A stretch of 64,000 nt of DNA from NCBI GenBank assembly GCA_965219095.1, contig OZ244719.1, positions 128,001-192,000 of the forward strand. Reading direction: 5' to 3'. Numbering within the stretch: position 1 is the stretch's first letter; each line of letters begins with the position of its first letter. Position numbers and translations under genes: made by a program. The stretch comes from Bdellovibrionales bacterium (GTDB lineage: Bacteria; Bdellovibrionota; Bdellovibrionia; Bdellovibrionales; UBA1609). The notes under the pieces were generated by a model that had not been told where the DNA came from, did no database searches, and was given only the letters and a program-made list of their open reading frames with translations. Shown here in pieces: positions 729 to 24,626 of this stretch.

Positions 729-962
729 TTATCTCAGCTGAAAATGTTTTTTCAGCCTTACAAATAGTCAATAAAAAATTACCTAAAATAACGCAGTGCT
801 AAAGAAAAGAACTCCTCTCAAACATTATAAAAAAGGTCACAGTCTATAAAGATAAAATAGCTGTTCAGTACTTTGGATGTACCGAATCTTCCATTAAGTA
901 ATAACGAAAACCAAGCTCATAATGACATGATCATAAGTTCGTATAATGTTCGTATTGGTTGC
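729..962 (+). pseudogene. 3' remnant of a second large serine recombinase; direct repeat of 24379-24611
   Basis: Matches 24379-24611 except for 6 substitutions and a 1-nt insertion. CAA>TAA at 800-802, extra A at ~886, truncated on the left by the IS630 end. Confidence 0.92.
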
Positions 963-1439
963 AAAAGCAAACACTTAAACAAAAATTCTCATTTTATTGA
1001 CTTTATTAGTTTTTTTTCTATACCCTCTAAAATAGATAATGAACTTTTTTGCAGTTTGTACAAAAAGCACCAACTCTCAGCAAGGCAAATAGCAGAGAAA
1101 ATAGGGGTCTGCAAGGCAACTGTTTTAAAGAGATTAAAAGAGAGCAATGTTTCATGTAGAAAAAAAGGGGCATCAAGCAACCTCCAAAATTATCTTTGTT
1201 CTAACCCTCCTTTTGGGTTCAAAGTTGTTGATGGAAGGCTTACTAAAAACCCATTAGAGGTTCGTATTTGTCGAAAAATTGTAGATATGAAAAACAAAGG
1301 ATATTCTTTTATTGCCATAGGTCAAACTCTTGAAAAAGAGGGCTTTAAAAACCGCAGAGGTTCTATTTCTTGGCATAACACTTTTGTTGGAAAAGTTTAC
1401 AATAGATGGTATAAAAAAGTACAACCGAAAGGAGTTTAA
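963..1439 (+). CDS. HTH + recombinase-domain module without a convincing start codon (track ORF 873..1439); in-frame C-terminal extension of the LSR across the att junction
   Basis: HTH-like LSARQIAEKIGVCKATVLKRL. Recombinase-domain-like PPFGFKVVDGRL..NPLE..IVDM..GYSF.AIG..LEKEGFKNRRG..W resembles the ALGYD..LIVNEEE..LNKNGYKT..RW region of the LSR itself. Confidence 0.75.
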   Translation, partial: KSKHLNKNSHFIDFISFFSIPSKIDNELFCSLYKKHQLSARQIAEKIGVCKATVLKRLKESNVSCRKKGASSNLQNYLCSNPPFGFKVVDGRLTKNPLEVRICRKIVDMKNKGYSFIAIGQTLEKEGFKNRRGSISWHNTFVGKVYNRWYKKVQPKGV

Positions 1440-1441
1440 AT

Positions 1442-1648
1442 ATGTTTTCAATTTTCAATATAGCTAAAGCCTTAGTAGCTATTTTGGCAGTTTTCATTAT
1501 AGCAACTAAACCTGAAATTCCTTATAAGTTGATTATAATGTTGCATGCTAAAACTGTAGAGCTTTCAAAGTTTGACTGGGGATGTCCATCTCCATTTAAT
1601 AAAAATGCTTGTAAAGAGTATGATCCTGATTTTTATAAAAGGTACTAA
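1442..1648 (+). CDS. Small hypothetical membrane/secreted protein (68 aa)
   Basis: AAGGAG RBS, hydrophobic N-terminus, two Cys near the C-terminus. Confidence 0.6.
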   Translation: MFSIFNIAKALVAILAVFIIATKPEIPYKLIIMLHAKTVELSKFDWGCPSPFNKNACKEYDPDFYKRY

Positions 1649-1680
1649 AGATATCATCAAAACCTGCAGAGCTTTAAAAT

Positions 1681-2506
1681 ATGGCGAATTTAGATAAATT
1701 AGATAAAAAAGAAGTTATAAAAAAAATTGTTAAAGACTCTGTAGCTTCTTTTGCTTCAAGGTTTCAAGCAAGACATGAAGGGGAGTTTGAAAACCCTAAT
1801 GGCACTATAAATATGAAAATTCATAATGTTTTCATTAGTACTCTTGACCCTAATCTTCAATACTACTCTGCTTTAGTTCGCTCTTTTGATAGTTCAATTG
1901 GTAATATGCTTGAAGATTTAGCAATTAAGATTGCAAAGCTTTCATATACAGTGAAAAGAGAAGTTAAAGGGTCTCTTTCATTAAAGCAAACTTCACAAAT
2001 CGCAGAATTATTAGAAAAGTACAAGAGCCGGGAGATAAGTCCACCAAAGATTTGCCATTACCAATTTTTGCGTACTAAGCAGCCTATGGATAATAACTCA
2101 AGTACTAAACGGCATAAAAGTGATTATTATCTTAATAGATAAAAAAACCGATGATCATTTCTTAATAGAATTAAAAATTGGTGGTGATTTAGACAACAAG
2201 AAATCAAGAGCTGAAAAAGAAGCCGTTTTAGAACAATTTGCTATTCTTTCAAATTCTTTACCAAAAGAAAAGGCCATTAAAATATTTTTTGCAACAGCCT
2301 ATAATAGGTATGGAGAAAATAAAAACTGGACTCAAGAAAGAGTAAGGCAATTCTTCGCAGAAGAAGAATTGCTAATAGGAAAAGAATTTTGGAATTTCAT
2401 ATGCAAATCTGAAGATGGTTATTCTCTTATTTTAGAAACTTATAAAGAAAATGCTAGTCTAATTAAAAGTGCTTTGGAGTCTATTAAAGAAACTTATTTA
2501 GGATAA
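1681..2506 (+). pseudogene. TdeIII-like type II restriction endonuclease, frameshifted near 2133
   Basis: Two ORFs join as KSDYYL/IDKK..FLIELKIGGDLDNKKSRAEKE (PD-(D/E)xK-type). Followed directly by methyltransferase genes. Confidence 0.7.
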
Positions 2507-2508
2507 TT

Positions 2509-4143: not shown

Positions 4144-4905
4144 CTATTTTATTTCATAAGGAACTGGATGTGTTGTTTTGCTTTTTTCGAAAGAGAGATA
4201 CTTATTATTTTTTGACTTTCCACTTTTGTTGTCATAGCAATTATCTTGAGTAAGAAATAAAACGACATTAAACTGATCGGTTTTTTTTATTTTGCTACTT
4301 GGATATAGAATCCCTTTAAAACTTTTTGTTTTTATGTATTCAGCTAAAATTTGTGTGGGGACATAGTCAGTATGTTCGCATCCATCTTTTTCTATTGGTT
4401 TAGAAATTGATTCTGATAGCTCTGCAAGAAAAATAAGTTCATTTCTTCTCTCTTTAGTGTTTTTATCAGGATCAAAAAAGCTAGGTAATTCCCTATTTCT
4501 ACACTTTATTAAGTCAATAACCTTTACCCCCTTTATTAATTGAAATTTTCCAACATATGCGATTCCTTCTTTTCCTGTTTGAGAGATTTCAGCTAAGGCT
4601 AATTTCTCATCAGAAGAAGCATAAAAAACAGGATATCCAGGCGGACTCATTCTACTAGATATGTTTTTAATGTCTTGAGGTTTTGGCGGCCCCATTCTCC
4701 TAAGATCATTCAAGATACGATTCCCTTCAGTAAAGGCTCTGGCTCTATAGAAAGTACGGTTATTATCCATAGGACGTTTTAAATTATGACGTTGAATAAT
4801 CTTCATAATATCTTCTAAAACTTTTTTATTTTTTTGTCCGTTAGAAGATATAAATTTCTTTAACCCAGGTTCATGCTCTAGACATTTTTCACATACAATT
4901 TTCAT
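4144..4905 (-). CDS. RES-domain protein (putative NAD+-degrading toxin/defence effector)
   Basis: FYRAR, SRMSPPGYPVFYAS, ALAEI, YVPTQILAEY and GILYPSS motifs. Confidence 0.85.
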   Translation of the reverse strand: MKIVCEKCLEHEPGLKKFISSNGQKNKKVLEDIMKIIQRHNLKRPMDNNRTFYRARAFTEGNRILNDLRRMGPPKPQDIKNISSRMSPPGYPVFYASSDEKLALAEISQTGKEGIAYVGKFQLIKGVKVIDLIKCRNRELPSFFDPDKNTKERRNELIFLAELSESISKPIEKDGCEHTDYVPTQILAEYIKTKSFKGILYPSSKIKKTDQFNVVLFLTQDNCYDNKSGKSKNNKYLSFEKSKTTHPVPYEIK

Positions 4906-4953
4906 TTACTTTGTTTTTTATACTGAGTTTTATTTAACTCTTGTTTATTTAGC

Positions 4954-5184
4954 TTAATTTTCAGTATCATGCGGTGGATTAGGATCGTTCCCATAAGAAT
5001 CTTTTGATCTGATCCTTCCGTCTTTTTCATGTATAACAACTTCTGTTTTACCTCTTTTTGCTCTTACAACGGCACTTTTTGTAGCAGTTTTTTGAGTTTT
5101 GTGTATAGAAAGTACGCTACCTGATTTTTTCACAGACCAACTATTTCCTATTTTTACAACATGATAGCCTTTTTTGCCCACCAT
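4954..5184 (-). CDS. DUF2188-family protein
   Basis: YHVV..WSVKK..HKTQ..EVVIHEKDGRIRSKDSYGNDP pattern; GGAG RBS. Confidence 0.85.
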   Translation of the reverse strand: MVGKKGYHVVKIGNSWSVKKSGSVLSIHKTQKTATKSAVVRAKRGKTEVVIHEKDGRIRSKDSYGNDPNPPHDTEN

Positions 5185-5472
5185 ACTCCTCCTAATAAGT
5201 TGTCACACAAAGCCCCATATTTTGAGAATAAGCCATACTTACCTATTTATCAAGGTATTGCAATAAAATGATTCAAGAAGAAACAGGACTCCTTATACTG
5301 CAAAAATTAATTCGATATTCTATGCTACCGTTTACTACAAAATATAGTTTTTGTTTTTGGCGTGATAGAGCAGTTTAGAGCGGTCTGTCGAGGTCTCATG
5401 CAGTCAGGGTATGTTGTTGCTATTAAATTTTTTACTGATTCCAAAAACTTAGAAAATGGACTCGTCTGCCCC

Positions 5473-5808
5473 TTAACCCCCACCAGCTCCATCTCCACCT
5501 CTCGTAGGAGAATCAAAGCTTAATAAAAAGTCCTCTCTGAGTTTTTCATTTTGTAAATTAAAAATCAAGTTTTCAATGTCTGGGTCAGATACAAAAACAA
5601 AGTCTCCATTAGCTAGTTCTACTTGATAGATGAGGTTTTCTGTAAGCTCAAAAATATCTATAGGTTTTATAGATACTATATTTCTGTAGTCAAAAATATA
5701 GACATCTTCTTTATGAATCTGTTTAGAGTCGTTAATATCGTTTATGAAAGCCTTTGATTCAAAAGAAAAAAAGCTTGCTATTAAGACAAGATAGATTGAT
5801 TTTTTCAT
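5473..5808 (-). CDS. Small secreted protein with Gly-rich C-terminal tail (TRGGDGAGGG)
   Basis: Signal peptide MKKSIYLVLIASFFSFESKA, GGAGG RBS, ATGA overlap with the upstream gene. Confidence 0.75.
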   Translation of the reverse strand: MKKSIYLVLIASFFSFESKAFINDINDSKQIHKEDVYIFDYRNIVSIKPIDIFELTENLIYQVELANGDFVFVSDPDIENLIFNLQNEKLREDFLLSFDSPTRGGDGAGGG

Positions 5809-6593
5809 ACTGTATTTCCTCCTTTTTTAATTGACTGAAAAAGATCACAAAAACTCACTGAAAAAGCATGAAACTTTCCTTGGTAGGAGGGATTGTTCAT
5901 AATACCTTGTATTTTTTGATGAAGCTGTTTATGAGCTTCCTGCAAAGCTTTTACACCTTCCTTATTTAAGCCTTCAGTTAAAGCATGAGCATAGTTTAAG
6001 CCTTCTCCTACATGGGAAGGCTTATAATAGTCAGAGTATGTTTTAAGGTGATATTTTAAGCTATCAAAAGACCTTAAAAGTTTGATTTTTTCTATAGCAT
6101 GATATTCACTGCAAACTTTTTTAATCAAACCTCTTTTCATTAAAATAGAGGCCACTTCTTTTGTTTTTGAACCTAAAATTGATTCAAGTGCTACTTCATC
6201 AATACCATTTTGGCTAAGTGATAAAATATAAGCTACAAAAACATCTCTATCCTCGAGCATGATCTCAAGTTCTCTATTAACAAAACATTTTTCCTTTTCT
6301 TTCAAACTTACTTCCATATAAGGTTTTAAAGCCTCGAAGAAGTCTCTAGATAAAGACGATAAACCTTGCTCTAAAAGATCAGTATTATCTGATGAAGTAA
6401 CAATTTTCGTAAAATTTATAACGTCTGGTTTTTGATGATTAGAGTTGTACATACGGTTAAGGGTTGCTCTTGGAACGTTTGTTTTGGATGCAAGCTGTAC
6501 TTCACTTAAGTTAGGATTTTTTGTTTTTAAATCCTTAAGTGATTTTTGCAAAATACCTTGCCAGTCCATTTTCACACTCGTAGATTTCAACAC
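5805..6593 (-). CDS. HTH transcriptional regulator, TIGR02147/DUF4423-like architecture
   Basis: N-terminal XRE-like HTH (KNPNLSEVQLASKTNVPRATLNRM), a central winged-helix-like segment, and a C-terminal alpha/beta domain ending FSVSFCDLF. Confidence 0.6.
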   Translation of the reverse strand: MLKSTSVKMDWQGILQKSLKDLKTKNPNLSEVQLASKTNVPRATLNRMYNSNHQKPDVINFTKIVTSSDNTDLLEQGLSSLSRDFFEALKPYMEVSLKEKEKCFVNRELEIMLEDRDVFVAYILSLSQNGIDEVALESILGSKTKEVASILMKRGLIKKVCSEYHAIEKIKLLRSFDSLKYHLKTYSDYYKPSHVGEGLNYAHALTEGLNKEGVKALQEAHKQLHQKIQGIMNNPSYQGKFHAFSVSFCDLFQSIKKGGNTV

Positions 6594-6675
6594 AAGATAA
6601 GGTGTATAATATCTATTTATCTTTGTAAACCCCTAAAACCTCATTTTGTAAAATTTTTATACTTTTTCAAGAAAA

Positions 6676-6720
6676 CTACTCACGATGAGCAGTTTTCTAT
6701 GAACTGCTCATTGTGAGTAG
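6676..6720. promoter_or_regulatory. Double palindromic operator-like site between divergent regulators
   Basis: CTACTCACGATGAGCAGTT-N7-AACTGCTCATTGTGAGTAG, an 18/19 inverted repeat. Each arm contains CTCA-N3-TGAG. Confidence 0.6.
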
Positions 6721-6858
6721 CCTACCATAAACAGAATCTATGTCTTTGTTGATTTAAAACGATTTGACTTTTTTCCTGCTTCCCATGGGAAGAAATTTTT
6801 TTCTAGAGTCTTTAAAAGAGAAAATTTTTATGAAAAATACTAACAAAGGAGGTATTAT

Positions 6859-7371
6859 ATGAAAAGCAAAACATCAGAAATCAAAAGAATAAAAAAAGAA
6901 TCCCAAACTTGGACAAAAGAAAAATGGGAAGATTACCTTTCAAGTCTTGAGGTAGAACGCACAGAGAGCCTTATAGACCCTTTCAAGCTTGAAGAGTTTA
7001 AAGAAGAAGACTCTCTTTTTCATTTTGAAAAAGATGAGGGAGACCATCTAGAAGACGTCGTTTCTCTTAAAAGAGCCTTAAAATCTCTTACTTTCAAGCA
7101 AAAGAGTGTGATTCAAATGGTCTTCTATGAAGGCTTGACAGAACGGGAGATTTCTAAAAAATTAAACATTTCCAGTTCTGCAGTGAATAAGAGAAAAAGG
7201 AAAGCAATTCAATCACTTAGAAGGAATTTAACCCCCATGGGGGTTAGCGCCTCCCCTATAGTGAGGGGGAAATTTTCCATGTCCGATCAAGATCAGCTCT
7301 ATTTGTTCGAAGAAATAAGGAAAAAGAACACCCATGCCAAACCCCTTAAAGTTAAAAAAACCGCTTCATAA
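6859..7371 (+). CDS. Sigma-70 region-4 HTH protein (ECF-like activator)
   Basis: LKRALKSLTFKQKSVIQMVFYEGLTEREISKKLNISSSAV..RKRKAIQSLR; AAGGAGG RBS. Confidence 0.85.
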   Translation: MKSKTSEIKRIKKESQTWTKEKWEDYLSSLEVERTESLIDPFKLEEFKEEDSLFHFEKDEGDHLEDVVSLKRALKSLTFKQKSVIQMVFYEGLTEREISKKLNISSSAVNKRKRKAIQSLRRNLTPMGVSASPIVRGKFSMSDQDQLYLFEEIRKKNTHAKPLKVKKTAS

Positions 7372-7387
7372 AAGAAAGGGAGGCTAT

Positions 7388-8959
7388 ATGACAGAAAATG
7401 TTATATCTTTAAAAGATAAAAAAGAGCTTTTACAGGGCTCAAAAACCTTTGAAATTTTCAAAGGTGAAAAAGACGAATACGGAAAGGTAAAGAAGACAAG
7501 GGCTTTAGGTCAAGCTCGTATTTATAAGGGTTCTGATACATACCATGTTTTCATAAAAACCCTACTTAATATAAAATTTTTTCTTTTGCCAGAAAAAAAG
7601 AATCCTCAAAAATATGAGTACGTCATTTTGACAAGAGAAATTTCACATTATTTCGATCGCAAGTATTACTGGAATGTAGTGGGGGAAGGCAGAATCCTTA
7701 TGGGTCAAAATGAAGGTCTTATGGAGTTAAGTTGGTATTTTTTTGGAAATAAGGACGTTTATAGTGCTTCCGCTTAGGTTTTCCGTTTTTTTTTGAGTTG
7801 AGGTCTAGTTTTTATTCTAAGGCCTTGATAAAAAGTCATTTATTTTTAAAAATAGTTTCATATGTCAGGGTTTCTATCAAAAAAAGAGCGAAAAGATTTA
7901 CTCTATGAACTATCTCTAGAGAAAAATCTTAAATACGTAAAAAGGATTATGACAATTCTCCATTTAGATAAAGGTGAGTTGTGTAAAGATATTTCCCGTT
8001 TTCTTTTCATTGATGAGGGCACGATAAGAGCCTGTAGAGATCGTTATAACAAAGGTGGGATAGAGTGCTTAATCAACGACAATTACAACCCTAAAAGGTC
8101 CTTTTTAACTAAGAAAGAGGAGAAAATGCTTTTAAAGGAGTTAGAAAAAAGAATTTTTCCGTCATCACAATCTGTTATCCAGTTCATTGAGGAGAATTTT
8201 GGTGTTACGTACTTTAACAAGTGGTGTAATTGATCTTCTCCATCGCCTTGGTTTTTCTTATAAAAAAGCCACAGCGATACCGGGTAAGGCAAAGAGAGAA
8301 GAGCAGAAAAAGTTTGTGCGTAAATACAAGAGAATTAAGAAGAAAGACGGTCCTGTTTACTTTGCTGATTCCACACATCCTGAGTGGGGCCCTACGATTT
8401 CATATGGTTGGATAAGAGAGGGTAAGAAGTTTGAAGTGAAGACCAATTCAGGCTGGAGAAAAAGAGTGAATGTTTGTGGAGCTATTGAGATCAATAGTTT
8501 GAAGACGGTAGTCAGGAGTTATAAGACAGTTAACCATGTTTCCATATGTGATATGCTCCATCATATTCGCAAGAAGCATCCCGATGAAAAAGAGATTCAT
8601 CTTATCTTAGATGGGGCCGGATACAATAGATCGAAGTCTGTCAAGAAGTTAGCGAAAGAGTTGAATATAGAACTTGTTTATCTTCCTCCGTACTCACCGA
8701 ATTTAAATCCTATAGAAAGGCTTTGGAAGTTTATGAAAAAAGAGGTCACGGCGAATCGATATTATGAAAACTATGACGATTTCAAGGGAAGTTTAAGTCA
8801 ATTTTTTAGAGGAATACGAAAACACAGATCTAAATTAGAAACTTTGATAACTGATAACTTCTCTATCTTAGGAAACTGAAAACCTAAACGGAAGCACTAT
8901 ATATGAGGCTTGATCCCTATCCTTGTGAAGAAATGTCTTTAAAAGCGACTGCAAGTTAG
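7388..8959 (+). pseudogene. Hypothetical gene interrupted near its 3' end by IS630
   Basis: Removing 7762-8901 restores ...GNKDVYMRLDPYPCEEMSLKATAS* in frame. GGGAGG RBS before ATG 7388. Confidence 0.8.
7762..8899 (+). mobile_element. IS630-family element (transposase split 7862..8233 / 8187..8879)
   Basis: 22-bp TIRs TAGTGCTTCCG(C/T)TTAGGTTTTC, TA duplication, ILDGAGYN and LPPYSPNLNPIERLW motifs. Confidence 0.95.
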
Positions 8960-8966
8960 AGGTTTT

Positions 8967-9254
8967 ATGAAAGTCAGAATTTTTCTATCATTTTTTCTTT
9001 TAGCAATCTTTTTTTTAATTTTACAAGAGCAGGTTATTTTTGCAGACTTTGAATCTTCTCTTTTGAACATAAAGTATAAGTTAACAAAAGTTATATTGCC
9101 TTTAATTTCTGTTATTGGATTAATTTTAGCCACATTTAGTTTTATTACAGGAAATCCCAGTGCGAAACAACACATTGTCTATGCGATCGTAGGATCGGCT
9201 ATTGGGTTTGGAGCACAAAGTATAATTGATTTTATAAGTTTCACTGTTTACTAA
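8967..9254 (+). CDS. TrbC/VirB2-like pilin
   Basis: Leader plus two hydrophobic helices; first gene of the T4SS cluster. Confidence 0.7.
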   Translation: MKVRIFLSFFLLAIFFLILQEQVIFADFESSLLNIKYKLTKVILPLISVIGLILATFSFITGNPSAKQHIVYAIVGSAIGFGAQSIIDFISFTVY

Positions 9255-9268
9255 GAAAGGAAAGTATT

Positions 9269-9577
9269 TTGCTTGAATCTAAGATGCCAAGAAATTTAGA
9301 TCATAAAATAAAGCTTTTAGGCTTTGAACTTATGGACTTACTTTTGATCTTTCTTTACTTGTCTATAAGCAATTTGATTTTTGGCCAAACAGCTTTAAAA
9401 TTTCTCTTAGTATGGATAGGTACAATTTTGCTTACTGTAACACTTTATTTTTTTAAAAAAGGGAAGCCAGAAAATTATATTTCTGATTTTTTGTCAAGTT
9501 ATTTAAATTCTAGTGTTTTCTCAGCCAATCTTTCAGATACAAAGCACAAGCCATATTTTAAAGGGAGGGGGAAATGA
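9269..9577 (+). CDS. VirB3-like membrane protein
   Basis: ~100 aa, two TM segments (LLGFELMDLL..), KKGKPENY; lies between the pilin and VirB4. Confidence 0.6.
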   Translation: MLESKMPRNLDHKIKLLGFELMDLLLIFLYLSISNLIFGQTALKFLLVWIGTILLTVTLYFFKKGKPENYISDFLSSYLNSSVFSANLSDTKHKPYFKGRGK

Positions 9578-15062: not shown

Positions 15063-15079
15063 CAGAAAGGAGTTTTTAT

Positions 15080-15682
15080 ATGAAAAACATACACCGTAAG
15101 TATTTTGAGATGTGGGGAGATGAACAGTCTCAAAATTTCTTTTTAAAGGGTCTCCTCGTAGTCATGCTCATAACAAGTCTCTTTTTAACAATTTCTTTAG
15201 CTATTATAAGCAGTAAAAAACCTTTTGTTATCTCAATAGACAAAGCTTCATCTAAAATCATAAAACTTTCAAAAAGCAAAACAAAAGAGCAAAATCTTGT
15301 TGAGATAAAGAGGTCTGTAGAGAAATTTATAAAATACCGACATAATTGGACTAGTGAAAAAATCAAGGAAAGATTAGAAAAGTCTTCAAAATTTATAGCT
15401 CCAAGCTTTAGAAAACGCTTTTTAGCATCAAATAGAAAACAGCTTAAAGAAGCGAGCAAAAAGAAAATAGCTCAACGTTTTTACATTTCAAAGGCTATGA
15501 ACATTGATATAGACAAAAACAAAGTAGAGGTGACAGGTGACAGAATTTTAATTGTTGATGGCTTAAGAGCAACTCAGCCTATGACGTTTCGTCTTAGTTA
15601 TATTTTTAAAAAAAGAACTTTAGACAATCCAGAAGGTGTTTATATCACTAGTGAGAATCTCATCTCTTCATTAGAGCATTAA
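15080..15682 (+). CDS. VirB8/TrbF(TraK)-like protein
   Basis: Single N-terminal TM; C-terminal RTLDNPEGVYIT motif typical of the VirB8 fold. Confidence 0.75.
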   Translation: MKNIHRKYFEMWGDEQSQNFFLKGLLVVMLITSLFLTISLAIISSKKPFVISIDKASSKIIKLSKSKTKEQNLVEIKRSVEKFIKYRHNWTSEKIKERLEKSSKFIAPSFRKRFLASNRKQLKEASKKKIAQRFYISKAMNIDIDKNKVEVTGDRILIVDGLRATQPMTFRLSYIFKKRTLDNPEGVYITSENLISSLEH

Positions 15683-15688
15683 AAAAAG

Positions 15689-16384
15689 GTGGTTAAAATG
15701 GATAGATTTTTTATTTTTATTTTTTTAATTAGTTTTCATGTAAAAGCAAAACAAGTCGAGACTGTTCATCTTACACAAAAAGACATTCATCAAGTTTATC
15801 TTAAACTTCATGAAACTACAGTCTTAAAGTTCGATTCTAAACCTAAACCTGCTATTATTGGAAAACAAGATGCCTATTTAGTGGAAACCTTTAAAAATGT
15901 AGTTGCTATAAAACCCATCAGAAAAGTAAGTACAAACTTTTTTGTTTTCACAAAGGAGGGTCATTTCAATTTTAAACTTATACCCAGTCCAACAAAATAC
16001 AAAACTTTAATCCATGTCAAAAGAAAACTCTCCTTTTTTGTTGAAAAAGTTTCAATAGGAACACCTTTTAAACTTTCAATGAGGGATGGTTTTTTATTCA
16101 GTTCAAAAAATAAGATTGCTATACTCTTTTCTTTAAGCTTACTTGGAAAAAATTCTAAAAAATATAAGTTTAAAAACTTTAAAATAAAAGCCTATCAGAA
16201 AGGAAAAAAAGTATCACTTGATTCTAAATTTACAGATAGGAGAGAGCTAGATTCTAAAACAAGGAAATTATCAGGGGTTTTCATTTTTAACAAGGATAAT
16301 CTAAGGCTAAAGGAGTTATTAACTTTCAAAATTTTTCATAAAGAGTTAAACAAGCCACTAAAAATTGAAATCAATTATCCTTGA
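15689..16384 (+). CDS. VirB9/TrbG-like secreted protein
   Basis: Signal peptide; TTVLKF..AIIG..NVVAIKP..TNFFVFT beta-rich N-domain. Confidence 0.6.
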   Translation: MVKMDRFFIFIFLISFHVKAKQVETVHLTQKDIHQVYLKLHETTVLKFDSKPKPAIIGKQDAYLVETFKNVVAIKPIRKVSTNFFVFTKEGHFNFKLIPSPTKYKTLIHVKRKLSFFVEKVSIGTPFKLSMRDGFLFSSKNKIAILFSLSLLGKNSKKYKFKNFKIKAYQKGKKVSLDSKFTDRRELDSKTRKLSGVFIFNKDNLRLKELLTFKIFHKELNKPLKIEINYP

Positions 16385-16393
16385 GGAGGATTT

Positions 16394-17236
16394 ATGTCAT
16401 TTAGAGAAAAAATAGAAGATCTTTTTTTAAGCGAAAGAAATAGTTTTACTAAAAAAAGGCTTTTAAAGACAAAAAATATCTTGATTTTTACTTTTTTTAT
16501 TTTATTTCTTGTTCTTATGTTTGGCGATTCTATTGAGAGGAAAAAGAAACAGGAGAAAGAAAATACAGAAAATTTTAAAGTTAAAATCACAAGACCTTTG
16601 TTAGAATATAAAACCTATGAATATGATGACATAGGGGTTTATAAAGAGACTGTTAAAGCAAAGAAAAGAATCGTCTCACAAATTATTGCACACAAGTCTG
16701 ACTCTTTAGGGCTAAAAGTTATGGTCGAACTTGTGGACAAAGTAGAAGCTATATCCTATAACTCTATCCCTATTATAGCGAAGGCTTTAGAGGGGGTTTT
16801 AAGTTTTATTGAAGAAGGAGATCTTTTTTTAGGGGAGGGATTTTTAGATTCTGAAAGTGAAAGGCTAAAGATTAACTTTCACACTCATATTTTAAACTCT
16901 GGAGAGAGAAAATCAATCTCAGCACAAGCTCTTAGTTCAAACGGCACTCTTGGTTTAAAAGGAGAGTTTAACTCACAATTTATCAAAAAATACGGCTCCC
17001 GTATGACAGCAAACTTTGTTGGAGGTATGGCAAAGGGACTTCAAAAAAAAGAAGTCACAGATCAGGGCTTTATTTTCAGTTCTAATGGATTCCAAAGTGC
17101 TTTTTTAAACGGACTTTCTCTTGTAGCTTTAGATTATGCCAGAAACAAATCGAAAAAAAACGAAAGAATAAAAGCTAAAATGACCTTAAAAAAAGGAATT
17201 CAATTTTTAATTTATTTTAATAGGGGGTCAAAATAA
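16394..17236 (+). CDS. VirB10/TrbI-like protein
   Basis: One TM; GDLFLG..ERLKINF..ALSSNGTLGLKG followed by a Gly-rich antenna helix. Confidence 0.7.
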   Translation: MSFREKIEDLFLSERNSFTKKRLLKTKNILIFTFFILFLVLMFGDSIERKKKQEKENTENFKVKITRPLLEYKTYEYDDIGVYKETVKAKKRIVSQIIAHKSDSLGLKVMVELVDKVEAISYNSIPIIAKALEGVLSFIEEGDLFLGEGFLDSESERLKINFHTHILNSGERKSISAQALSSNGTLGLKGEFNSQFIKKYGSRMTANFVGGMAKGLQKKEVTDQGFIFSSNGFQSAFLNGLSLVALDYARNKSKKNERIKAKMTLKKGIQFLIYFNRGSK

Positions 17237-18663
17237 AGCTTCAGAAAGAAAGCCTTTTAGATTCTTTTTTTAAAGCCCTATTTCAAGGACTTCTTAAGTT
17301 TTTCAAAAATGACTTTACCACAAACTTATTAGTTCTTGTTATCGTTTATTGCCTTTTTTGGTTCGTTGTAAAGTTTGATGTTCATCTTTTTATTTTAAAT
17401 CGGTTTCTAAGCTTATCCTATCCATCAAGATTTTCTGATTTTATTTATAAAATCTCAGACTTTCAATGGCTTTTATTTTTTCACTCTTTTTTTCTTTTTA
17501 TTTTCCTTTTATTTTTAGGAAAAAAAGGCTCATACTTTGAGCATACCTTCCAAAAGATTGGATTAAAAAACAGTTTAGGAAAAACCCCTGAGCTTATGAA
17601 AAAAGTAAACATCAATTCCTACCGCACTTTTTATGTTTTTGATTCGAAGGGTTTAGCTCTTGATGATTTTAAAGTTAAAGAGAAAAAAATAGCTTCTTGT
17701 CTTGACGGCTTTGTAGAAAGCCTCAAGCAAGGAAAAAGTCCTAAGTGGGTCACTCTTACAGTCAGTAAAAGGCCTTTTCCAAAAAAGGTCTGTTATAAAG
17801 ACATTTCAAAGAAAAAAAATCTTGCAGAAGGAAGTTTCTTTCTTGGTCACTCTGGGGAGGGTGTGGTTTTTGCAAAGATTTCAGAATTGCCCCATGTGTT
17901 GATCGCAGGAGCAACAGGAACTGGAAAGTCTGTTTTTTTCAAACAAGCTCTTTTGGGACTTTTAGAATCCACCCTTCATCTTCAAATGTACCTTATTGAC
18001 TTAAAAGGTGGACTTGAAATGATAGATTTTGTTCAAGCTCCTAATGTTCAAGTGATTAAAGACACCTCTCATGCTCTTTATACCCTTGAGAGGGTTCAAA
18101 AGGAAATGAAAGCTCGTTTTAGCTATTTAGAAGGAAAGGGATTAAAGCAAATTATTCCCCTAAGGGATAAAAAAGAAAGGATTCTTGTGGCCATTGATGA
18201 GGCTTCAGTGCTTTATATGACAAGGCCAAAGTTCGATCCCCATCATGAGGCTACGATCAAAGCAAGAGGTCTTGCGGACTCAATCTCGAAGCTCTCAAGA
18301 GCTGGAGCCATTCATCTTATGCTAGCAACACAGAAGTTGGAAAAGAGTGTGATTCCCAGCTCCGTTTCTGAAAACATATCAGGACGGATGATCTTTAGAA
18401 CCAACTCACTTCAAGGAAGCCTTATGATGTTAGGAACAAAAGAGGCTATGAATCTTCCAGAAGTAAAAGGTCGTGGGATATGGCAGTTTGGCTCTCAAAA
18501 AAAGACACTTCAAGTTCCTTACATTGATCCTAAAGACATTCAAAAAAGATGCCAAGTCATAGCAAAAGAGTTTCAAACAGGCAAAAGAAAACTGTTTAAT
18601 CCTATGATAAACATGAGGCCTAACAAAGGCATAGATCAAGTGACAGGTGAAATTTTAAATTGA
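17233..18663 (+). CDS. FtsK/SpoIIIE (TcpA-like) ATPase with N-terminal TM segments; start codon appears to be ATA
   Basis: HVLIAGATGTGKS, LIDLKGGLE, VAIDE and RAGAIHLMLATQK motifs. The frame is open from 17224, with an AGGGGG RBS and ATA overlapping the VirB10 TAA. Confidence 0.85.
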   Translation: MKLQKESLLDSFFKALFQGLLKFFKNDFTTNLLVLVIVYCLFWFVVKFDVHLFILNRFLSLSYPSRFSDFIYKISDFQWLLFFHSFFLFIFLLFLGKKGSYFEHTFQKIGLKNSLGKTPELMKKVNINSYRTFYVFDSKGLALDDFKVKEKKIASCLDGFVESLKQGKSPKWVTLTVSKRPFPKKVCYKDISKKKNLAEGSFFLGHSGEGVVFAKISELPHVLIAGATGTGKSVFFKQALLGLLESTLHLQMYLIDLKGGLEMIDFVQAPNVQVIKDTSHALYTLERVQKEMKARFSYLEGKGLKQIIPLRDKKERILVAIDEASVLYMTRPKFDPHHEATIKARGLADSISKLSRAGAIHLMLATQKLEKSVIPSSVSENISGRMIFRTNSLQGSLMMLGTKEAMNLPEVKGRGIWQFGSQKKTLQVPYIDPKDIQKRCQVIAKEFQTGKRKLFNPMINMRPNKGIDQVTGEILN

Positions 18664-19442
18664 CAAAAAAGGAGGTCAAAATGAATTGTAATGTTTCAGT
18701 TCAAGATATCAAGCTTTTTTATTATTTACATGCGGTAAAAATAGCTTTAATCGAACAAATAAAAAGAGATGTTTATGCCCATCTAAGAAAAAAAACCCTT
18801 TATACAAAGTTAAGACGTTTAGAAAAAAGAGGCTTTCTTAAAAGTACGACAGTGACAGAAAAAAGAAAAAAAGTCTACTTTTTAAGTAAAGAGGGGTTTT
18901 CTCAAATAGAAGAAAAAGAGAGCCAAAAGCGTAAGGAGCTTAAAAGCGATTCTATAGCTCATGATCTAGGACTTGTTGATATAAGGCATGCTTTTAAAAG
19001 TTGTCCTAGAGTTTTAAAGTACCTTACTGAAAATGAAGCACAAACTTGGAAGCAAGACTCTCTTATGAGCCCTTTTTTAGAAGTCCATTCAGACGCTGTT
19101 ATTAAAGTCTCTTTTCCTAAGGGAAATTTTTATTTAGGTATAGAGTACGAGTGTAGCTACAGGTCAAAAAATCGTCTTCAAAGAGCTTTAAAAAGATACT
19201 ATTCAAAGCCTGAAATCCTAGCTGTTTTGTACATTTTGCTTTCAAAAAGAAGAAGAAATAGCTTAATGGGTGAAGAAAAAAGGCTTTTTTCTGATAGCCC
19301 TTCTAAGATTTTTTATAGTCTGCTTGAGGATTTAATGGCTAAAAATTTAATAAGCTTGGTTAATTCTAGAGGAGAGAAATTGCAGTTTGAAAAAGCAAAA
19401 AACTCTCTTTTAAAAAACAAAAAAGGGAGTAAAAACAAGTGA
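18660..19442 (+). CDS. Replication-relaxation (Replic_Relax, PD-(D/E)xK) family relaxase-like protein
   Basis: N-terminal wHTH (LRRLEKRGFL..VYFLSKEG), IAHDL, HSDAVI, LGIEYECS..SKNR....KRY. Confidence 0.75.
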   Translation: MTKKEVKMNCNVSVQDIKLFYYLHAVKIALIEQIKRDVYAHLRKKTLYTKLRRLEKRGFLKSTTVTEKRKKVYFLSKEGFSQIEEKESQKRKELKSDSIAHDLGLVDIRHAFKSCPRVLKYLTENEAQTWKQDSLMSPFLEVHSDAVIKVSFPKGNFYLGIEYECSYRSKNRLQRALKRYYSKPEILAVLYILLSKRRRNSLMGEEKRLFSDSPSKIFYSLLEDLMAKNLISLVNSRGEKLQFEKAKNSLLKNKKGSKNK

Positions 19443-19654
19443 TGAATTGATGATGAGGATTCCACAGTAAAAAATTATTTTTAGGCTTTATAACCTATTG
19501 AAATTATTTATTTTTCAGCTATCTTTTGCAAATTTAAAAAACCTGCCTGAGTCCCATTTCAACTTTTTAAAAACTCTTAAGCTAAAGTTGGCAAAAAAAT
19601 AAAAAACTATCACTTAAGTTAGAAATTAAAAGAATAAAAAAGAAAGGTTTATTT

Positions 19655-19999
19655 ATGGAAAGAAATAAAGAAAATAAAGACACAAAAAAAGAAGGGATAA
19701 AAGTTAAGAAGAAAGTAGCACGTCTTATTCTTGAAAAACGTACTTTTTTTAAAATAAAAGAGCTTTTAAAAAAAGCTAATAAAAACCCTTATGGTAAGAA
19801 AGTAAAACCAAAAGACCTTGTTCAAAAATCCATCTCTCTTATCACTGATGAACACCTTTTTGAACTAAAAAGTGCAACACTTTCAAATCAAGATCATATA
19901 GATATGAAATTTAAACAGTACCAAAAGCAAAATCCTAAAATTTCAAAAGATGAATTTCTAGGGAAGCTTCTTTGTGGAAAGCTAGGAGCAGAGGATTAA
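19655..19999 (+). CDS. Basic hypothetical protein, possible DNA-binding relaxosome accessory factor
   Basis: 114 aa, Lys-rich, directly after the relaxase and an AT-rich gap. Confidence 0.55.
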   Translation: MERNKENKDTKKEGIKVKKKVARLILEKRTFFKIKELLKKANKNPYGKKVKPKDLVQKSISLITDEHLFELKSATLSNQDHIDMKFKQYQKQNPKISKDEFLGKLLCGKLGAED

Positions 20000-21321
20000 G
20001 AAGAATGGATTCCATTTCTGATCTTAAACAAACATTTTTGAGGTGTAAGATGAACCACAATAATTATAAAATTTTTCTAGGAGATAGTCTCCAAGTCTTA
20101 AAAACTCTTCCTGATCATTTTATTGATTCTATGGTGATAGACCCCCCTTCTGGGATTGGTTTTTTAAGATTGAAATGGGATAAAAACAGAGGAAGCAAAT
20201 ATAACTGGGTTAAATGGCTTAAAAACCTTATGATAGAGGCTCATAGAGTTTTAAAGCATGGAGCTTACGGGTTTGTGTGGGCTCTACCTAGAACCTCTCA
20301 CTTGACAGCTTGGGCTTTAGAGGAAGCGGGTTTTGAAATAAAAGACATTGTAAGCCATGTCTTTTTTTCTGGCTTTCCTAAAAGTTTAAACCTAGAAATT
20401 GCTATAGATAAGGCTAAATATCTTCATAAAAAAGATATGTATCGTGTAACAGGCTGGATAAGAAAGAGAACAGAGGAGTTGGGTTTAAAACAAAAAGACC
20501 TTAATAAAGTGGCTGGGGTTAAAAACCTTGCCTCTCACTGGATGGCTGATTCATCAAATTCACAGCCTCATATCCCGACCCTAGAAATGTGGAAAAAGCT
20601 AGAAACTGTTTTAGGGAAATGTCCTGAATGGATGGAGTGTTTGATTAAACCCTGTCGTGAAAAAGGTAAATTTTGGAAACAAAGAAAACTCATAGGCCAG
20701 CATAAACACTCAGCTTGGACATTAGGAGAACAAAAATACCTTCCTAAAGAACTAACACGTTCCACTAATCCACAGGCTCTTCAATGGCAAGGTTGGGGGA
20801 CAGCTCTAAAGCCTGCTAATGAACATTGGATTTTAATTCAAAAACCCATCTCTGAACACAACATTGCTTCAAATGTTCTTAAACATAAGACAGGAGGGCT
20901 TAATATAGAGGTTTCAAAGTTTGGTGAAAAAAAGAAGTATCCTTCTAACTTTATTTTAACAAAAGCAGATGAACTAAAGGGAGCTTTTAAGCAAAAAAAA
21001 GACCTTGATAGGTATGTAAAAACTTTTAAGCCCGAAATCCCCTTTTATTACTGTAAAAGAGCCTCTAAGAAAGAAAAAAAAGAGTTTAACACGCATCCCA
21101 CAGCTAAGCCCTTAAACCTTATGAGCTACCTTTGCAAAATGATCACTCCTAAAAACGGAGTCATTCTTGATCCTTTCATGGGAAGTGGTACAACAGGGGT
21201 TTCTTCCCTTAAAGAGGGTTTTCAATTCATAGGCATAGAACAAGACAAGAGCTATTTTGAGATTGCACAAAAGAGGCTGGAAGGCCATAAAAACAGCCTT
21301 CCACTAGATAAGGCTTGTTAA
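19972..21321 (+). CDS. Beta-class N4/N6 DNA methyltransferase with internal XRE-like HTH (true start probably ATG 20005 or 20050)
   Basis: GDSL..VIDPPSGIGF, HPTAKP, ILDPFMGSGTTG and FIGIE motifs. Insert WIRKRTEELGLKQKDLNKVAG..ASHW..P. Confidence 0.88.
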   Translation: MWKARSRGLRRMDSISDLKQTFLRCKMNHNNYKIFLGDSLQVLKTLPDHFIDSMVIDPPSGIGFLRLKWDKNRGSKYNWVKWLKNLMIEAHRVLKHGAYGFVWALPRTSHLTAWALEEAGFEIKDIVSHVFFSGFPKSLNLEIAIDKAKYLHKKDMYRVTGWIRKRTEELGLKQKDLNKVAGVKNLASHWMADSSNSQPHIPTLEMWKKLETVLGKCPEWMECLIKPCREKGKFWKQRKLIGQHKHSAWTLGEQKYLPKELTRSTNPQALQWQGWGTALKPANEHWILIQKPISEHNIASNVLKHKTGGLNIEVSKFGEKKKYPSNFILTKADELKGAFKQKKDLDRYVKTFKPEIPFYYCKRASKKEKKEFNTHPTAKPLNLMSYLCKMITPKNGVILDPFMGSGTTGVSSLKEGFQFIGIEQDKSYFEIAQKRLEGHKNSLPLDKAC

Positions 21322-21597
21322 GGACTAATGGACTGATGAGTCAAAAAGTTCAAAAAAGGAGTGGACTTTCATGATAAACAGAGCTTCTATAGACTTGAAG
21401 TATAAAAAAGCAAGGATAAGAAAGCATAGCACACTTTCCTACCCTCTAAACATACCATACCTAACGCAGGAGGTACAGCATGTCTAATCCTACCTAATAT
21501 CATAGCCTTAAAACTTTTGATAGCCATTAGGCTTCAAAATAAAGCCCTATATTTTATACAACAAGTCCAAATTTTAACCAGAAAGGAGAAATAAATT

Positions 21598-21936
21598 ATG
21601 ATGATTTACAATTTTGAAATCAATAAAGCCTTAAAGAAGGGCTTAGAATCTTTAGAGGGTCTTTGTCCAAAGGTGTGTGAGCTCATACTAGCTCTGAAAG
21701 AGGACTGCACAAATTCCAAAAAAGAAGAAGTACCTCTTTTTGATCTTTTAATTCATTTGATCTTTCTTTCAGAAAGAGAAATGACTTCAAGGTCTTTTAA
21801 GAACTTAGAAACCAAAACAGACCATGATTTAGAAAATTTAGTAAAGTTTTATTCAGATCATTTTTTAATGGATTCTTTTGTCAAAGAAAATTTGATTAGG
21901 GATTTAAAAAAAAGAAAGAAAGAAGAAAGGGAGTAA
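21598..21936 (+). CDS. Hypothetical protein, paralog 1 of 3
   Basis: AAGGAG RBS; shared motif EEVPLFDLLIHLIFLSERE. Confidence 0.7.
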   Translation: MMIYNFEINKALKKGLESLEGLCPKVCELILALKEDCTNSKKEEVPLFDLLIHLIFLSEREMTSRSFKNLETKTDHDLENLVKFYSDHFLMDSFVKENLIRDLKKRKKEERE

Positions 21937-21940
21937 AATC

Positions 21941-22363
21941 ATGTTAATTACTTTAGAAGAATTAAAACAAGATTTAAATGAGTATCAAAAAAAACACCAA
22001 TTTAACCTCCCTGTAAGAGTTCAGGATATGTTAGACACTCTTAAACTTTATATAGAAGAACAGGAAATAGAAGATGTTTCGCTTTCACAGCTTCTTGTGA
22101 TTTTTATTTTTTTAGCAGACGATAAGCCATGTCAGCTTATCTCTGAACTCTTACCATGCCTTGATTCAGATTGTATTTATGGCTTAAATGATGAGTTGTT
22201 CAATTGCTTTTCTTTATTACGAGATTTTCTTAAAAAGGAGGAAACCTTATTGATGTTGCAGAAAGAAGAGGAAGAAGAGGAAGAAGAAGGGGAAGAGGAA
22301 GAGGAAGAGGAAGAAAATGAAGAAAATGAAGAAAATGAAGAAAATGAAGAAAATGAGAAATAA
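21941..22363 (+). CDS. Hypothetical protein, paralog 2 of 3, with poly-Glu/(EEN)n tail
   Basis: Motif EDVSLSQLLVIFIFLADDK; 9-bp GAAGAAAAT repeats at the 3' end. Confidence 0.7.
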   Translation: MLITLEELKQDLNEYQKKHQFNLPVRVQDMLDTLKLYIEEQEIEDVSLSQLLVIFIFLADDKPCQLISELLPCLDSDCIYGLNDELFNCFSLLRDFLKKEETLLMLQKEEEEEEEEGEEEEEEEENEENEENEENEENEK

Positions 22364-22369
22364 CTGGAG

Positions 22370-22729
22370 ATGTTTATGAATTTATCAGTCTATAAAGTTA
22401 TAAAATGCCTTTCAAAAGGTCAGAAAATGCTTGACGGCAAAAGTGTAAGGACTTATTTTTTAATGGATGCTTTAAAAAACGAGTATTTAAGAAATTTAAA
22501 AAGCGAAGAAGTAGAACTTTTTGACTTGTTAGTCCATTTAGTTTTCTTTGCAAATAGAGAGCCTGAAAGAATCATTTTAAATTTACTAAAGGTTATAAAT
22601 AGTGAAATGGTTTTTGATTTAGAACCTACAACAATAAGTGAGTCTGCTTATTTTTTGGATGAAGGGTTTAGAAAGGATATGGTTCTCAGTCATTTAAGAA
22701 GGGCGAAGAAAGAAAATATAAAAAAATGA
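22370..22729 (+). CDS. Hypothetical protein, paralog 3 of 3
   Basis: Motif EEVELFDLLVHLVFFANRE. Confidence 0.7.
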   Translation: MFMNLSVYKVIKCLSKGQKMLDGKSVRTYFLMDALKNEYLRNLKSEEVELFDLLVHLVFFANREPERIILNLLKVINSEMVFDLEPTTISESAYFLDEGFRKDMVLSHLRRAKKENIKK

Positions 22730-22771
22730 AAAAACTAAAATACTTTAAAAAAATCATCAAAAGGAGTTTGT

Positions 22772-22981
22772 ATGGAAAAAGCCAAAAAGACTTGTTCCAG
22801 GAAATATCCTATGCTAAACAATATAAAATGGATTGTTTATCCCTTATCGGAGGAAGAAGAAAATGAAAGAATCAAAAAACTCGCAAAACTGTTCTACAGG
22901 TATATGGCGCAAAATAGCCAGAGGAGAAAAGCTAAAAACACCTTTAAACAAACAGAGTTCAAAAAAACTATCGGACTGTAA
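22772..22981 (+). CDS. Small basic protein overlapping the LSR 5' region
   Basis: AAGGAG RBS with correct spacing; 69 aa. Confidence 0.55.
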   Translation: MEKAKKTCSRKYPMLNNIKWIVYPLSEEEENERIKKLAKLFYRYMAQNSQRRKAKNTFKQTEFKKTIGL

Positions 22982-24604
22982 GTATAAGATCGCTGTTTAC
23001 ATTAGGCTTTCTCCCAGCGATGAGATTAGAGAGGAAGGTTCTCTAGTCTCGCACCCTCAAAGGATTAGAAACTTTATTGAAATGAAAAATAGGTCTGATC
23101 CTACTTGGGGGGAGATCATAGAAACTTATATTGATAAAGACCTTTCAGGAAAGAACATGAATAGGCCTGCTTTTCAAAAAATGTGTAAAGACATAGTTTC
23201 AAGAAAAGTCAATGCTGTTATTGTCACAGAGCTTTCAAGGCTTAGTCGAAGTGTGAAGGACTTTTGCCATTTTTGGGATTTTTTAAAAGAGCATAATGTG
23301 AAGTTTTTTAGTTTGAAAGAAAACTTTGATACTTCAACAGCTATGGGGGAGCTTATGGTCATTCAAGCCATTAGTTTTGCTCAGTTTGAAAGACAGACCA
23401 TTGTGGAAAGAACAAAAAACGGCATACAGGCAAGAGCTGAAAGAGGGCTTTCTAATGGTGGTCAAAGAGCTTTAGGCTATGACTCTCACCCTACAAAAAA
23501 ATGTCATCTTATAGTAAATGAAGAAGAAAAAATCATTGTAAATTTTATTTTTAATAAATTCCTAGAGCTTGGATCTTTATCTAAAACATTAAATTTTTTA
23601 AATAAAAATGGCTACAAAACAAAGTCTTCTGTAAATAAAGGAGGGAAGCAAAGAGGCGGAAGTCGCTGGACACTAACAACCTTGTACACCCTGCTTACAA
23701 ACCTTGTTTATATTGGAAAAAGAGAGTTTAACAAAAGAAATAGAAACAAAAATCAATTAGAGCTAAGCCTTTCTGAAAGATATAAGGTCTATGATAGCCA
23801 ATGGCCTGCTATTGTATCTCAAGAACTATTTAATGAAGTTCAAGAACGTTTAGAAAAGAATAAAAAAGAATTAAGAAAAAGCCATCATTGTTACATTCTT
23901 TCAGGCTTAGCTTATTGTGGGCTTTGTGGTCAAAAACTTTCAGGAGTAGGAGCTAATGGCAACAATAGAAAGTACTTCTATTACTCCCACAAAAGAAAAA
24001 TGTTAACACAGGGAGACAGGCACTTAAAAAAATGTGAATTAGAGAACATCCCCGTTCATAGTCTAGAAGAAGCTGTAAATTTTAGAATTAAAAATCTTGT
24101 GAAAAATAAAGCCTTTCTTTTAGAGCTAGTCAAAAATAACAACATGCAGAATCAGGAGAGACTGAAGAATAACCAAAGTTTAATGAACTCCCATAGAGAA
24201 AGCCTAAAGAAAGTCAATAACGACACACAGGGGCTTACACAGGCCTTAGCAAGAGCTACCAGCAATAAGGCAAGAGATTTTTTGCTCGAACAAATTAACT
24301 CTTTAAATGACAAATCTAGTGAAATTAAACAAGAAGTAGAAAGACTTAAAAACGAAAGAACTTCCTTTAAAGAAACCGTTATCTCAGCTGAAAATGTTTT
24401 TTCAGCCTTACAAATAGTCAATAAAAAATTATCTAAAATAACGCAGTGCCAAAGAAAAGAACTCCTCTCAAACATTATAAAAAAAGTCACAGTCTATAAA
24501 GATAAAATAGCTGTTCAGTACTTTGGATGTACCGATCTTCCATTAAGTAATAACGAACACCAAGCTCATAATGACATGGTCATAGGTTCGTATAATGTTC
24601 GTAT

Positions 24605-24626
<22 letters not shown>
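22833..24626 (+). CDS. Large serine recombinase (resolvase, recombinase, Zn-ribbon and coiled-coil domains); exact start uncertain
   Basis: AVYIRLS catalytic Ser, SGKNMNRP, LSRLSRS, AQFERQTIVER and LSGLAYCGLCG..YFYY..C motifs. Confidence 0.95.

Follow-up and report, generated by a model that had tools for sequence, protein, structure and literature searches.

The locus studied here raises the question of whether an integrase can be one protein while its element is integrated and another while it is circular. It lies in a stretch of 64,000 nucleotides (nt) from a Bdellovibrionales bacterium (assembly GCA_965219095.1, contig OZ244719.1, positions 128,001 to 192,000, forward strand; hereafter the window), which carries an integrative conjugative element (ICE) with a large serine recombinase (LSR). 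The LSR open reading frame (ORF; 22833..24626, plus strand) encodes the short, integrated-state form of 597 amino acids (aa), and its translation ends in SYNVRIGCGNRI before the stop codon. It matches the Pfam families Resolvase (PF00239, 1.1e-33), Recombinase (PF07508, 5e-20) and Zn_ribbon_recom (PF13408, 4.1e-08), all above the cut-offs, in the domain order of serine integrases, with the Resolvase catalytic domain followed by the Recombinase domain (DBD1) and then the zinc ribbon. Residues S60, R58 and R66, within YIRLSPSDEIREEGS, are invariant or nearly so across 42 aligned homologs, and S60 can be read as the probable nucleophilic serine. The target is tRNA-Met(CAT), located at 24605-24681 on the minus strand and the only tRNA gene given by ARAGORN in the window. 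Its CCA end (24607-24605), which appears as an antisense TGG at 24605-24607, is the crossover region. Because the LSR ORF overlaps this tRNA gene, its frame crosses the antisense CCA, takes its 5 final sense codons and its stop from antisense tRNA sequence, and terminates in the antisense T-loop (..RIGCGNRI, stop at 24624-24626). The initial annotation, which had placed the element boundary inside the LSR ORF with the right side running into the antisense tRNA, was therefore correct. The right attachment (att) site, attR (24586..24635, plus strand), is composed of a P arm with GTTCGT at 24586-24591 and 24597-24602, the core TTGGT at 24604-24608 and the tRNA body as B' arm; the repeat shared with the left end of the element finishes at 24611. 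The LSR tail (24570-24611) also contains a second antisense-CCA-like core, ATGGTCA, at 24576-24582, plus two GTTCGT motifs, possibly as stacked alternative att sites.

At the left end, the last LSR codons recur at 951-962, where the ORF 873..1439 reads ..SYNVRIGC and then KSKHLNKNSHF.. / KSKHLNKNSHFIDF.. for 158 codons in the same frame. Because a codon begins at 963 and another at 24612, the join of 24611 to 963 yields 593 + 158 = 751 codons, in agreement with the length originally proposed. However, the shared stretch is not limited to 12 nt, because positions 729-962 and 24379-24611 match over 234 and 233 nt, respectively, with about 97% identity. The left copy (729..962, plus strand, 234 nt) is a relic of an LSR 3' end, on the P-arm side, in which a TAA stands at 800-802 and one nucleotide has been inserted near 885. 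This relic is interrupted by an IS630-type insertion sequence (IS), the right part of which occupies 2..728 on the plus strand (DDE_3 transposase ORF 2..451, Pfam E 2.3e-18), and beyond this insertion a further 283 nt of LSR 3' sequence (96%) were found to the left of the window (G000:C1:127025-127306), so that the repeat totals about 511 nt when this piece is included. The IS upstream of the relic is a 25-copy one.

Few shared bases suffice for a serine recombinase; with about 511 nt of repeat stopping precisely at the crossover, the left junction is therefore no attL. When the window sequence was compared with the conserved arms of relatives, an attP-type site was recognised at 937..985 (plus strand), with GTTCGT at 937-942 and again at 948-953, the core TTGGT at 955-959, in which TGG is the antisense CCA, and a degenerate P' arm extending to about 985. 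On the evidence of these sequences, the left junction is of attP type, the P arm of a former LSR copy being joined to the P' arm of the present element, and it corresponds to an inner junction between tandem elements, the left one, a tandem or older copy, having been reduced to the relic by IS activity. The chromosome thus already preserves a fossil of the fused frame, behind a truncated and broken LSR. A contig of a public sequencing run spans 913-1600 with 0 differences, in a run that may be the window's own source and not independent of it. A second public-run contig has the variants of the right copy and continues into another antisense tRNA, with no joints over 400-1600 in runs that are possibly non-independent.

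Frame conservation across the junction and purifying selection on the module encoded after the crossover had been suggested as checks of the proposed fusion, and both were found. The presence of a downstream LSR was examined at 35 module loci, comprising three elements of the window's own genome (E1-E3), 30 stretches of 40 kilobases (kb) and two elements of an array in genome G219. Own-element pairs of module and LSR were found at 14 of them, in 12 genomes, and all 14 pairs showed the same register of the TGG core at both ends, which was NTG-G in five elements and xxT-GG in nine (hyphens marking codon boundaries). None of the 14 paired LSRs has a stop of its own before the core. Under random pairing of registers, 14 matches would be expected 1 time in 2002, or about 1 in 800 with close kin merged. 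The 52 unique loci, which derive from 61 rows with 9 loci listed twice, were distributed as 26 in the first register, 20 in the second and 2 in the third, a recognisable core being lacking in 4. Translation of the P' arm gives (M/L)VDQPEYGTN in the first register (NTG-GTG..) and xGGPTRI.. in the second (xxT-GGT..), whereas TGG as a codon is rare. Elements of G276 and G349 are nearly identical in their P and P' DNA and yet read it in different registers, alike on both sides, so that paired, compensating indels must have occurred on the two arms. In the G219 array, LSR_b (second register) and the module of the next element (first register) are out of frame, whereas each own pair is in frame; this cross-element junction is an internal control for the frame test.

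The distribution of stop codons gave the same picture. In the LSR tails, from the last LSR homology to the core (12 elements, 652 codons), there were 0 stops in the LSR frame versus 32 and 46 in the others, and between the core and the conserved module segment (132 codons) 0 stops were found in frame versus 5 and 5. Module dN/dS values (nonsynonymous to synonymous substitution rates) ranged from 0.05 to 0.22 in 11 distinct pairs. The relatives with a continuous frame share only 24-68% LSR identity and use many tRNAs. An integrase frame that crosses the crossover, with different C-termini in the integrated and free states, was therefore found in the window and in 14 of 14 relatives. These comparisons show a frame that is continuous in attP, is cut by integration and is maintained by selection. 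Consequently, the idea that excision would fuse the LSR to the module holds for the family but not for this copy, the left end of which is of attP type behind an IS-truncated relic. The tRNA genes downstream of the G158, G160 and G385 modules were rejected as attR because no frame enters them, and G328, where a P-arm-like site and 108 codons of open frame in the module register are found at tRNA-Arg, was left out of the pair count because no LSR was detectable.

The module family comprises 508 representatives at E <= 1e-3, mostly of 113-215 aa with a few long ones such as P0113, and was present in 186 of the 401 genomes of the phylum searched (119 of 204 genera). Its two named relatives belong to metagenome-assembled genomes of Bacteriovoracaceae and Bacteriovoracia; the phylum was therefore taken as Bdellovibrionota, in which the design with attP in frame is a family trait. 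A search of viral contigs with a single module protein yielded no relative. Nearly every module locus opens with the same DNA, (A/T)TGGTGGACCAACCCGAATACGGTACGAAC, which is the P' arm. In the family, the P arm has GTTCGT 12 nt before TTGGT and the P' arm has ACGAAC about 19 nt after it. The unoccupied tRNA-Pro site of G331 shares its B arm with the attL of G394, and attB, attL and attR have only TGGTCG in common, which fixes the crossover position at this core. The sites thus show short imperfect inverted arms round a small core, with hybrid attL and attR, as is proper to serine integrases. The targets of the family elements are tRNA-Met, Asn, Asp, Ala, Pro and Leu and tmRNA-like 3' ends. Regarding the latter, the LSRs of G029, G208 and G375 (L090/L091, L100/L101 and L102/L103) read into a tmRNA-like 3' end (TGGTGGAGG..GAACCC), and their target may be read as the tmRNA (transfer-messenger RNA) gene.

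Complete long frames were found in G219 (753 aa), P0113 (702 aa, LSR plus module) and P0235 (739 aa). The G219 array (G219:C2:5500-50400; L042, L043 and L108) consists of three LSR elements in tandem ending at tRNA-Pro; its first junction is the complete 753-aa LSR-module frame and its second junction is out of frame. From such tandem arrays and attP-type left junctions (E1-E3, G219 and G264), it seems that occupation (attR, P-B') does not stop a site from serving as a target again, and the LSR may read mainly the tRNA half of the site, which would fit the reuse of an occupied attR.

The module of the window (963..1439, plus strand; 158 codons plus stop) has a 9-codon linker, a conserved N-terminal segment, a three-helix helix-turn-helix (HTH) and a recombinase-type (DBD1-like) half domain; in the family, the HTH and recombinase-type parts make up about 145 aa. 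The HTH and second recombinase-like domain that had been predicted here were borne out. The window copy scores under the curated Pfam cut-offs (HTH_50, 26.1 bits; Recombinase, 17.4 bits), and family members match Recombinase in 22 of 26 cases and HTH_23 in 19 of 26. The NCBIfam search gave no family above cut-off for the module, and neither Pfam nor NCBIfam searches returned a family annotated as excisionase or recombination directionality factor (RDF). The structural model (pLDDT, predicted local distance difference test, 82.7) displays the three-helix HTH, a linker, a beta-hairpin and three helices. Foldseek against pdb did not give any match to it at E <= 0.001; its top rows were serine-integrase chains (9y66, 9dxh, 9dxd and 4kis; E 4.5e-3 to 0.18), 4kis_A being superposed on the model over 66 columns with a root-mean-square deviation of 2.2 A. 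From its modelled fold and its family matches, the module is probably a DNA-binding unit akin to the DBD1 of the integrase itself. Prediction of a complex between LSR 225-575 and the module gave 0.47, with 0.00 for the best control and no interface reported, and passes at or below 0.60 are more often wrong than right; the mark itself was reached by 116 of 157 solved complexes versus 2 of 215 mismatched pairs. The runs agreed in at least 71% of contacts, with a partner pLDDT of at least 67.

In the family, the reading frame runs through the LSR (catalytic domain, DBD1, zinc ribbon and coiled coil), an unconserved tail carrying the P arm, the antisense-CCA crossover, the P' arm and the module. 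Integration cuts this frame: the LSR then ends a few codons into the antisense tRNA, and the module is stranded at the opposite end, where it lacks a Shine-Dalgarno (SD) motif and, in the second register, often a start codon as well. The circle, or the inner junction of a tandem array, restores the long frame (751 codons in the window). Because only the circle is present after conjugative transfer, the integrating enzyme would be the long LSR, and the chromosomal element could make the short one only. We therefore favour the explanation that an attP-spanning frame of LSR plus module is cut by integration and that the added module probably alters the recombinase in the circular state. The module might help the long LSR to find or hold att or target sites. 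It might also dock on the DNA-binding and coiled-coil part of the LSR and occupy the surface of the directionality factor, in which case a new enzyme would integrate even while the excision factor persists, or it could be a regulator whose synthesis follows the circular state. A switch of directionality or autoregulation may be involved. The more specific proposal of a topology-coded directionality, in which the circle-only long integrase is competent for integration or insensitive to the excision factor and integration clips the module to leave an enzyme fit for excision, is a tentative possibility. It would make of these elements a phylum-wide tRNA-targeting family in which the tRNA CCA supplies the crossover and, in one register, the start codon of the orphan module.

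The possible translation of the module on its own bears directly on this model. The initial annotation had described the module as silent, with no in-frame ATG until deep in the second domain, only a TTG at the HTH start and no evident ribosome-binding site. In the window, where the module is in the second register, the first in-frame TTG after 963 is at 1056 and the first ATG is found in ..KIVDMKNK.., none of the motifs GGAG, GAGG and AGGA appears upstream of its in-frame start candidates, and other genes of the element have strong AAAGGAG sites that the module lacks. However, in-frame starts do exist upstream of 963, within the relic (ATG at 927 and TTG at 873). Family-wide, the interval from the preceding stop to the conserved segment is free of in-frame ATG, GTG and TTG codons in 11 of the 20 unique second-register loci. 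Of the 26 unique first-register loci, only 2 show an SD-like motif ahead of the start at the core. There is no conserved internal start codon, the best column downstream of the core reaching 9 of 52 loci. Read-through from the LSR in the attP state would therefore be the sole translation route common to all elements. The reading of the module N-terminus as a sense-strand tRNA read-through was rejected since the loci show antisense CCA cores, and only the representative P0009 looks so.

Nevertheless, several data weigh against a function of the module restricted to the fusion, and most of them would suit an alternative in which the module would be a gene in its own right, the first after attL, encoding a small HTH regulator or accessory recombination protein and starting at a CCA-formed NTG or at a non-canonical codon, the continuity of the LSR frame being a by-product of tight att spacing. 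The antisense CCA forms an in-frame ATG or TTG at the module start in 26 of the 52 unique loci. Most of the best 150 representatives are stand-alone proteins of about 113-215 aa with N-termini at the core, and in public gene calls the family members are mostly separate proteins of about 155 aa. Open frames of at least 290 aa account for 7 of the 150 module matches listed and there is 1 long form among the 120 LSR homologs listed, so that array junctions are nearly the sole places where the long form is observed. Moreover, no LSR is in reach at 21 of the 35 module loci, nine of these 21 being small islands of 1.3-14 kb bounded by the module and an antisense tRNA. The right ends of these islands keep the P arm and have lost the LSR frame, and their modules are intact, with dN/dS of 0.05-0.17 between islands, which is hard to fit with a fusion-only function unless the LSR loss was recent. 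Either this loss would be recent and frequent, or the module would have an LSR-independent role and expression. The term silent is hence suitable for about half of the loci, 11 of the 20 in the second register being without a start, but not for those with a CCA-formed start nor for the LSR-less islands under purifying selection. In addition, the 14 pairs include close kin (E1/E2 and G208/G375) and the frames were extrapolated from hidden Markov model matches, among which a late-starting one can give a wrong register, as for G009, which is 95% identical to G088 yet was assigned to a different register. On the other hand, the scarcity of SD-like motifs in first-register loci, the second-register loci without a canonical start and the absence of a conserved start column do not agree with a separate gene, and tight att spacing leaves unexplained the stop-free LSR tails, which reach 13 to about 196 codons past the last LSR homology, as well as the register match in 14 of 14 pairs. 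For these reasons, we regard a separate gene as unlikely.

It was also considered that the long form could be a natural integrase-RDF fusion in which the module is the directionality factor and drives excision. According to PMC12286644, integrases engineered to carry an RDF at their C-terminus perform attL x attR recombination, attP x attB being blocked, and the weak docking of the module on the LSR predicted above would also fit. However, only an excised element or an array junction can encode this fusion, not attL/attR DNA, and that state is the one needing integration. The module, moreover, resembles a DNA-binding HTH plus DBD1-like domain instead of any excisionase or RDF family of Pfam or NCBIfam. 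This explanation is accordingly very improbable. Finally, the left ORF could be an accident of decay, that is, a pseudogene junction produced by tandem duplication and IS-mediated deletion whose open frame is meaningless. The window offers some support for this, since the left repeat is frameshifted and contains a stop, one IS has inserted into it and a second multi-copy element borders it, and the ICE itself has split genes, IS insertions and no attL. But the same frame is present in the divergent elements of 12 genomes at many tRNAs, and the module in nearly half of the genomes searched. Decay stands for the relic 729-962 itself and is contradicted for the family, for which we find it hardly credible.

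Attachment sites lying inside genes of the element have precedents. In mycobacteriophage BPs, which uses a tyrosine integrase, attP is reportedly inside the repressor gene, and the integrated and free states are said to differ in a C-terminal degradation tag; the likeness lies in an attP within a gene and in state-dependent C-termini, and the difference in that the gene is that of the repressor and not of the integrase. Phage Mx8 is said to target the 3' end of a tRNA gene, and to our knowledge its exchanged tail is not a conserved extra DNA-binding module. As in the elements described here, attP of Mx8 lies within the integrase gene and the C-terminus is changed by integration, but its enzyme is a tyrosine recombinase with a different mechanism. 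In PMC6070905 and PMC4383910, Mx8 IntP is reported to have attP inside its coding sequence, integration giving a new 3' end and altered enzyme properties. The latter source also describes the SSV1-type archaeal integrase gene, which extends across attP and is split on integration (PMC4383910); that enzyme belongs to the tyrosine family and its catalytic gene is broken in two, whereas here the catalytic LSR stays whole. Closer to the present case are the streptococcal rumA ICEs, which have a single serine integrase with a direct repeat inside its gene, and in which integration exchanges the 3' parts of rumA and of the integrase gene and changes the C-terminus, as far as the available text of PMC4701971 describes. 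Their target is protein-coding and the swap shifts the frame of both proteins, and neither a conserved HTH plus recombinase-domain module nor in-frame conservation is reported in that text. The previous statement that such a switch has not been described for serine integrases was consequently too strong.

A C-terminal addition that changes directionality is likewise known for the engineered integrase-RDF fusions, whose authors suggest in PMC12286644 that natural C-terminal LSR extensions may block the RDF site. These fusions are man-made, and LSRs with long C-terminal extensions carry them independently of the recombination state, unlike the elements studied here. With respect to the target, a database paper of 2014 gives tRNA-gene targeting as unknown for serine integrases (PMC4383910). 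Our literature search, in which few subscription journals were covered, did not reveal any attP-spanning precedent with a conserved in-frame DNA-binding module, nor tRNA-targeting LSRs. Therefore, what is new here is the conserved in-frame DNA-binding module, the co-varying registers and the CCA-end target, an attP-spanning integrase itself being already known.

The ICE body occupies 4144..22729 according to Pfam matches. Its type IV secretion system genes encode TrbC/VirB2, TraL, TraC in two ORFs, a TraG-type P-loop protein, TraE/VirB8, a CagX-like protein and TrbI, and it also contains genes for a RES-domain protein, a sigma-70 r4 regulator, an FtsK-type ATPase, a Replic_Relax protein and an N6/N4 methylase, DNA methylases being two in the whole element. 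The TraC/VirB4-type ATPase (9574-12010) is in two overlapping ORFs, which suggests a frameshift, and two IS elements are inserted in the body, one of IS630 type (7862-8879) and another of ISL3 type (13523-14770). The split TraC, these two IS and the missing attL indicate that, despite its secretion system, FtsK-type ATPase and Replic_Relax genes, the element is an ICE in decay. Since no attL is left, the window copy probably cannot excise by its own LSR. Between the module and the ICE body, a TdeIII-type restriction enzyme is encoded by two overlapping ORFs on the plus strand (1681-2142 and 2120-2506), probably also through a frameshift, and the adjoining D12 adenine methyltransferase (2509-3630, plus strand) is whole; both were identified with Pfam. 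The RES-domain gene (4144-4905, minus strand, Pfam E 9e-15) has two unassigned ORFs just upstream on the same strand (5473-6593), and this locus is possibly a stabilisation module of toxin-antitoxin type.

Concerning the LSR-less islands, the seven that were scanned contain cargo only, namely SIR2 with HerA, DUF4917, a luciferase-like oxidoreductase, transporters and regulators. Four islands, L057 (G394), L059 (G256), L065 (G009) and L069 (G088), are bounded by an intact module and an antisense tRNA-Pro and carry cargo such as SIR2 with HerA and DUF4917, which are probable defence genes, oxidoreductases or metal transporters; they are candidates for mobilisation in trans.

In the genome of the window (G000; 3.1 megabases in two contigs), 22 LSR matches were found, of which five are full length, and LSR genes or fragments stand antisense against 9 of its 34 tRNA genes (Met x3, Ile, Pro, Val, Leu x2 and Ser). 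Copies of the LSR tail of the window with at least 96% DNA identity abut tRNA-Met, tRNA-Ile and a second tRNA-Met, and an 84-nt piece with 88% identity abuts tRNA-Val. The copies or relics of this LSR type other than that of the window are at C2:189849-193329 (tRNA-Ile) and C2:1881380-1881818 (second tRNA-Met), both with about 97% identity, and at C1:386053-386136 (tRNA-Val, 88%). Near-identical LSR tails at Met, Ile and Val tRNAs imply that one integrase type uses several tRNA genes and that its specificity beyond the CCA end is loose. Two module paralogs (51% and 38% identity) are also encoded in the genome, each preceded in frame by an LSR C-terminal piece and with a full LSR next to an antisense tRNA about 30 kb downstream. 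The direct repeats of these two elements, of 346 nt (97.7%) and 782 nt (100%), extend 6 nt into the tRNA; the three elements of the genome (E1-E3) thus share their layout, with direct repeats (234 to about 511, 346 and 782 nt) ending 6-7 nt inside the tRNA. The genome is rich in repeats, with units of about 90 nt and about 60 nt in around a hundred copies each and several IS families of 25-90 copies, and such units and IS families bound the LSR relics.

The appeal of serine integrases is that the enzyme and two short sites suffice for integration, a separate factor setting the direction. If the explanation favoured here is true, the recombination state would decide which isoform of the integrase is made, which would be a new compact way of controlling direction and a ready design for genetic latches. 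In addition, serine integrases targeting the CCA end of many tRNA and tmRNA genes are documented, and the design would explain the tandem arrays and the LSR-less islands found at these sites. For annotators, it would give the reason why a widespread 'hypothetical HTH protein' of about 155 aa is often without a start codon.

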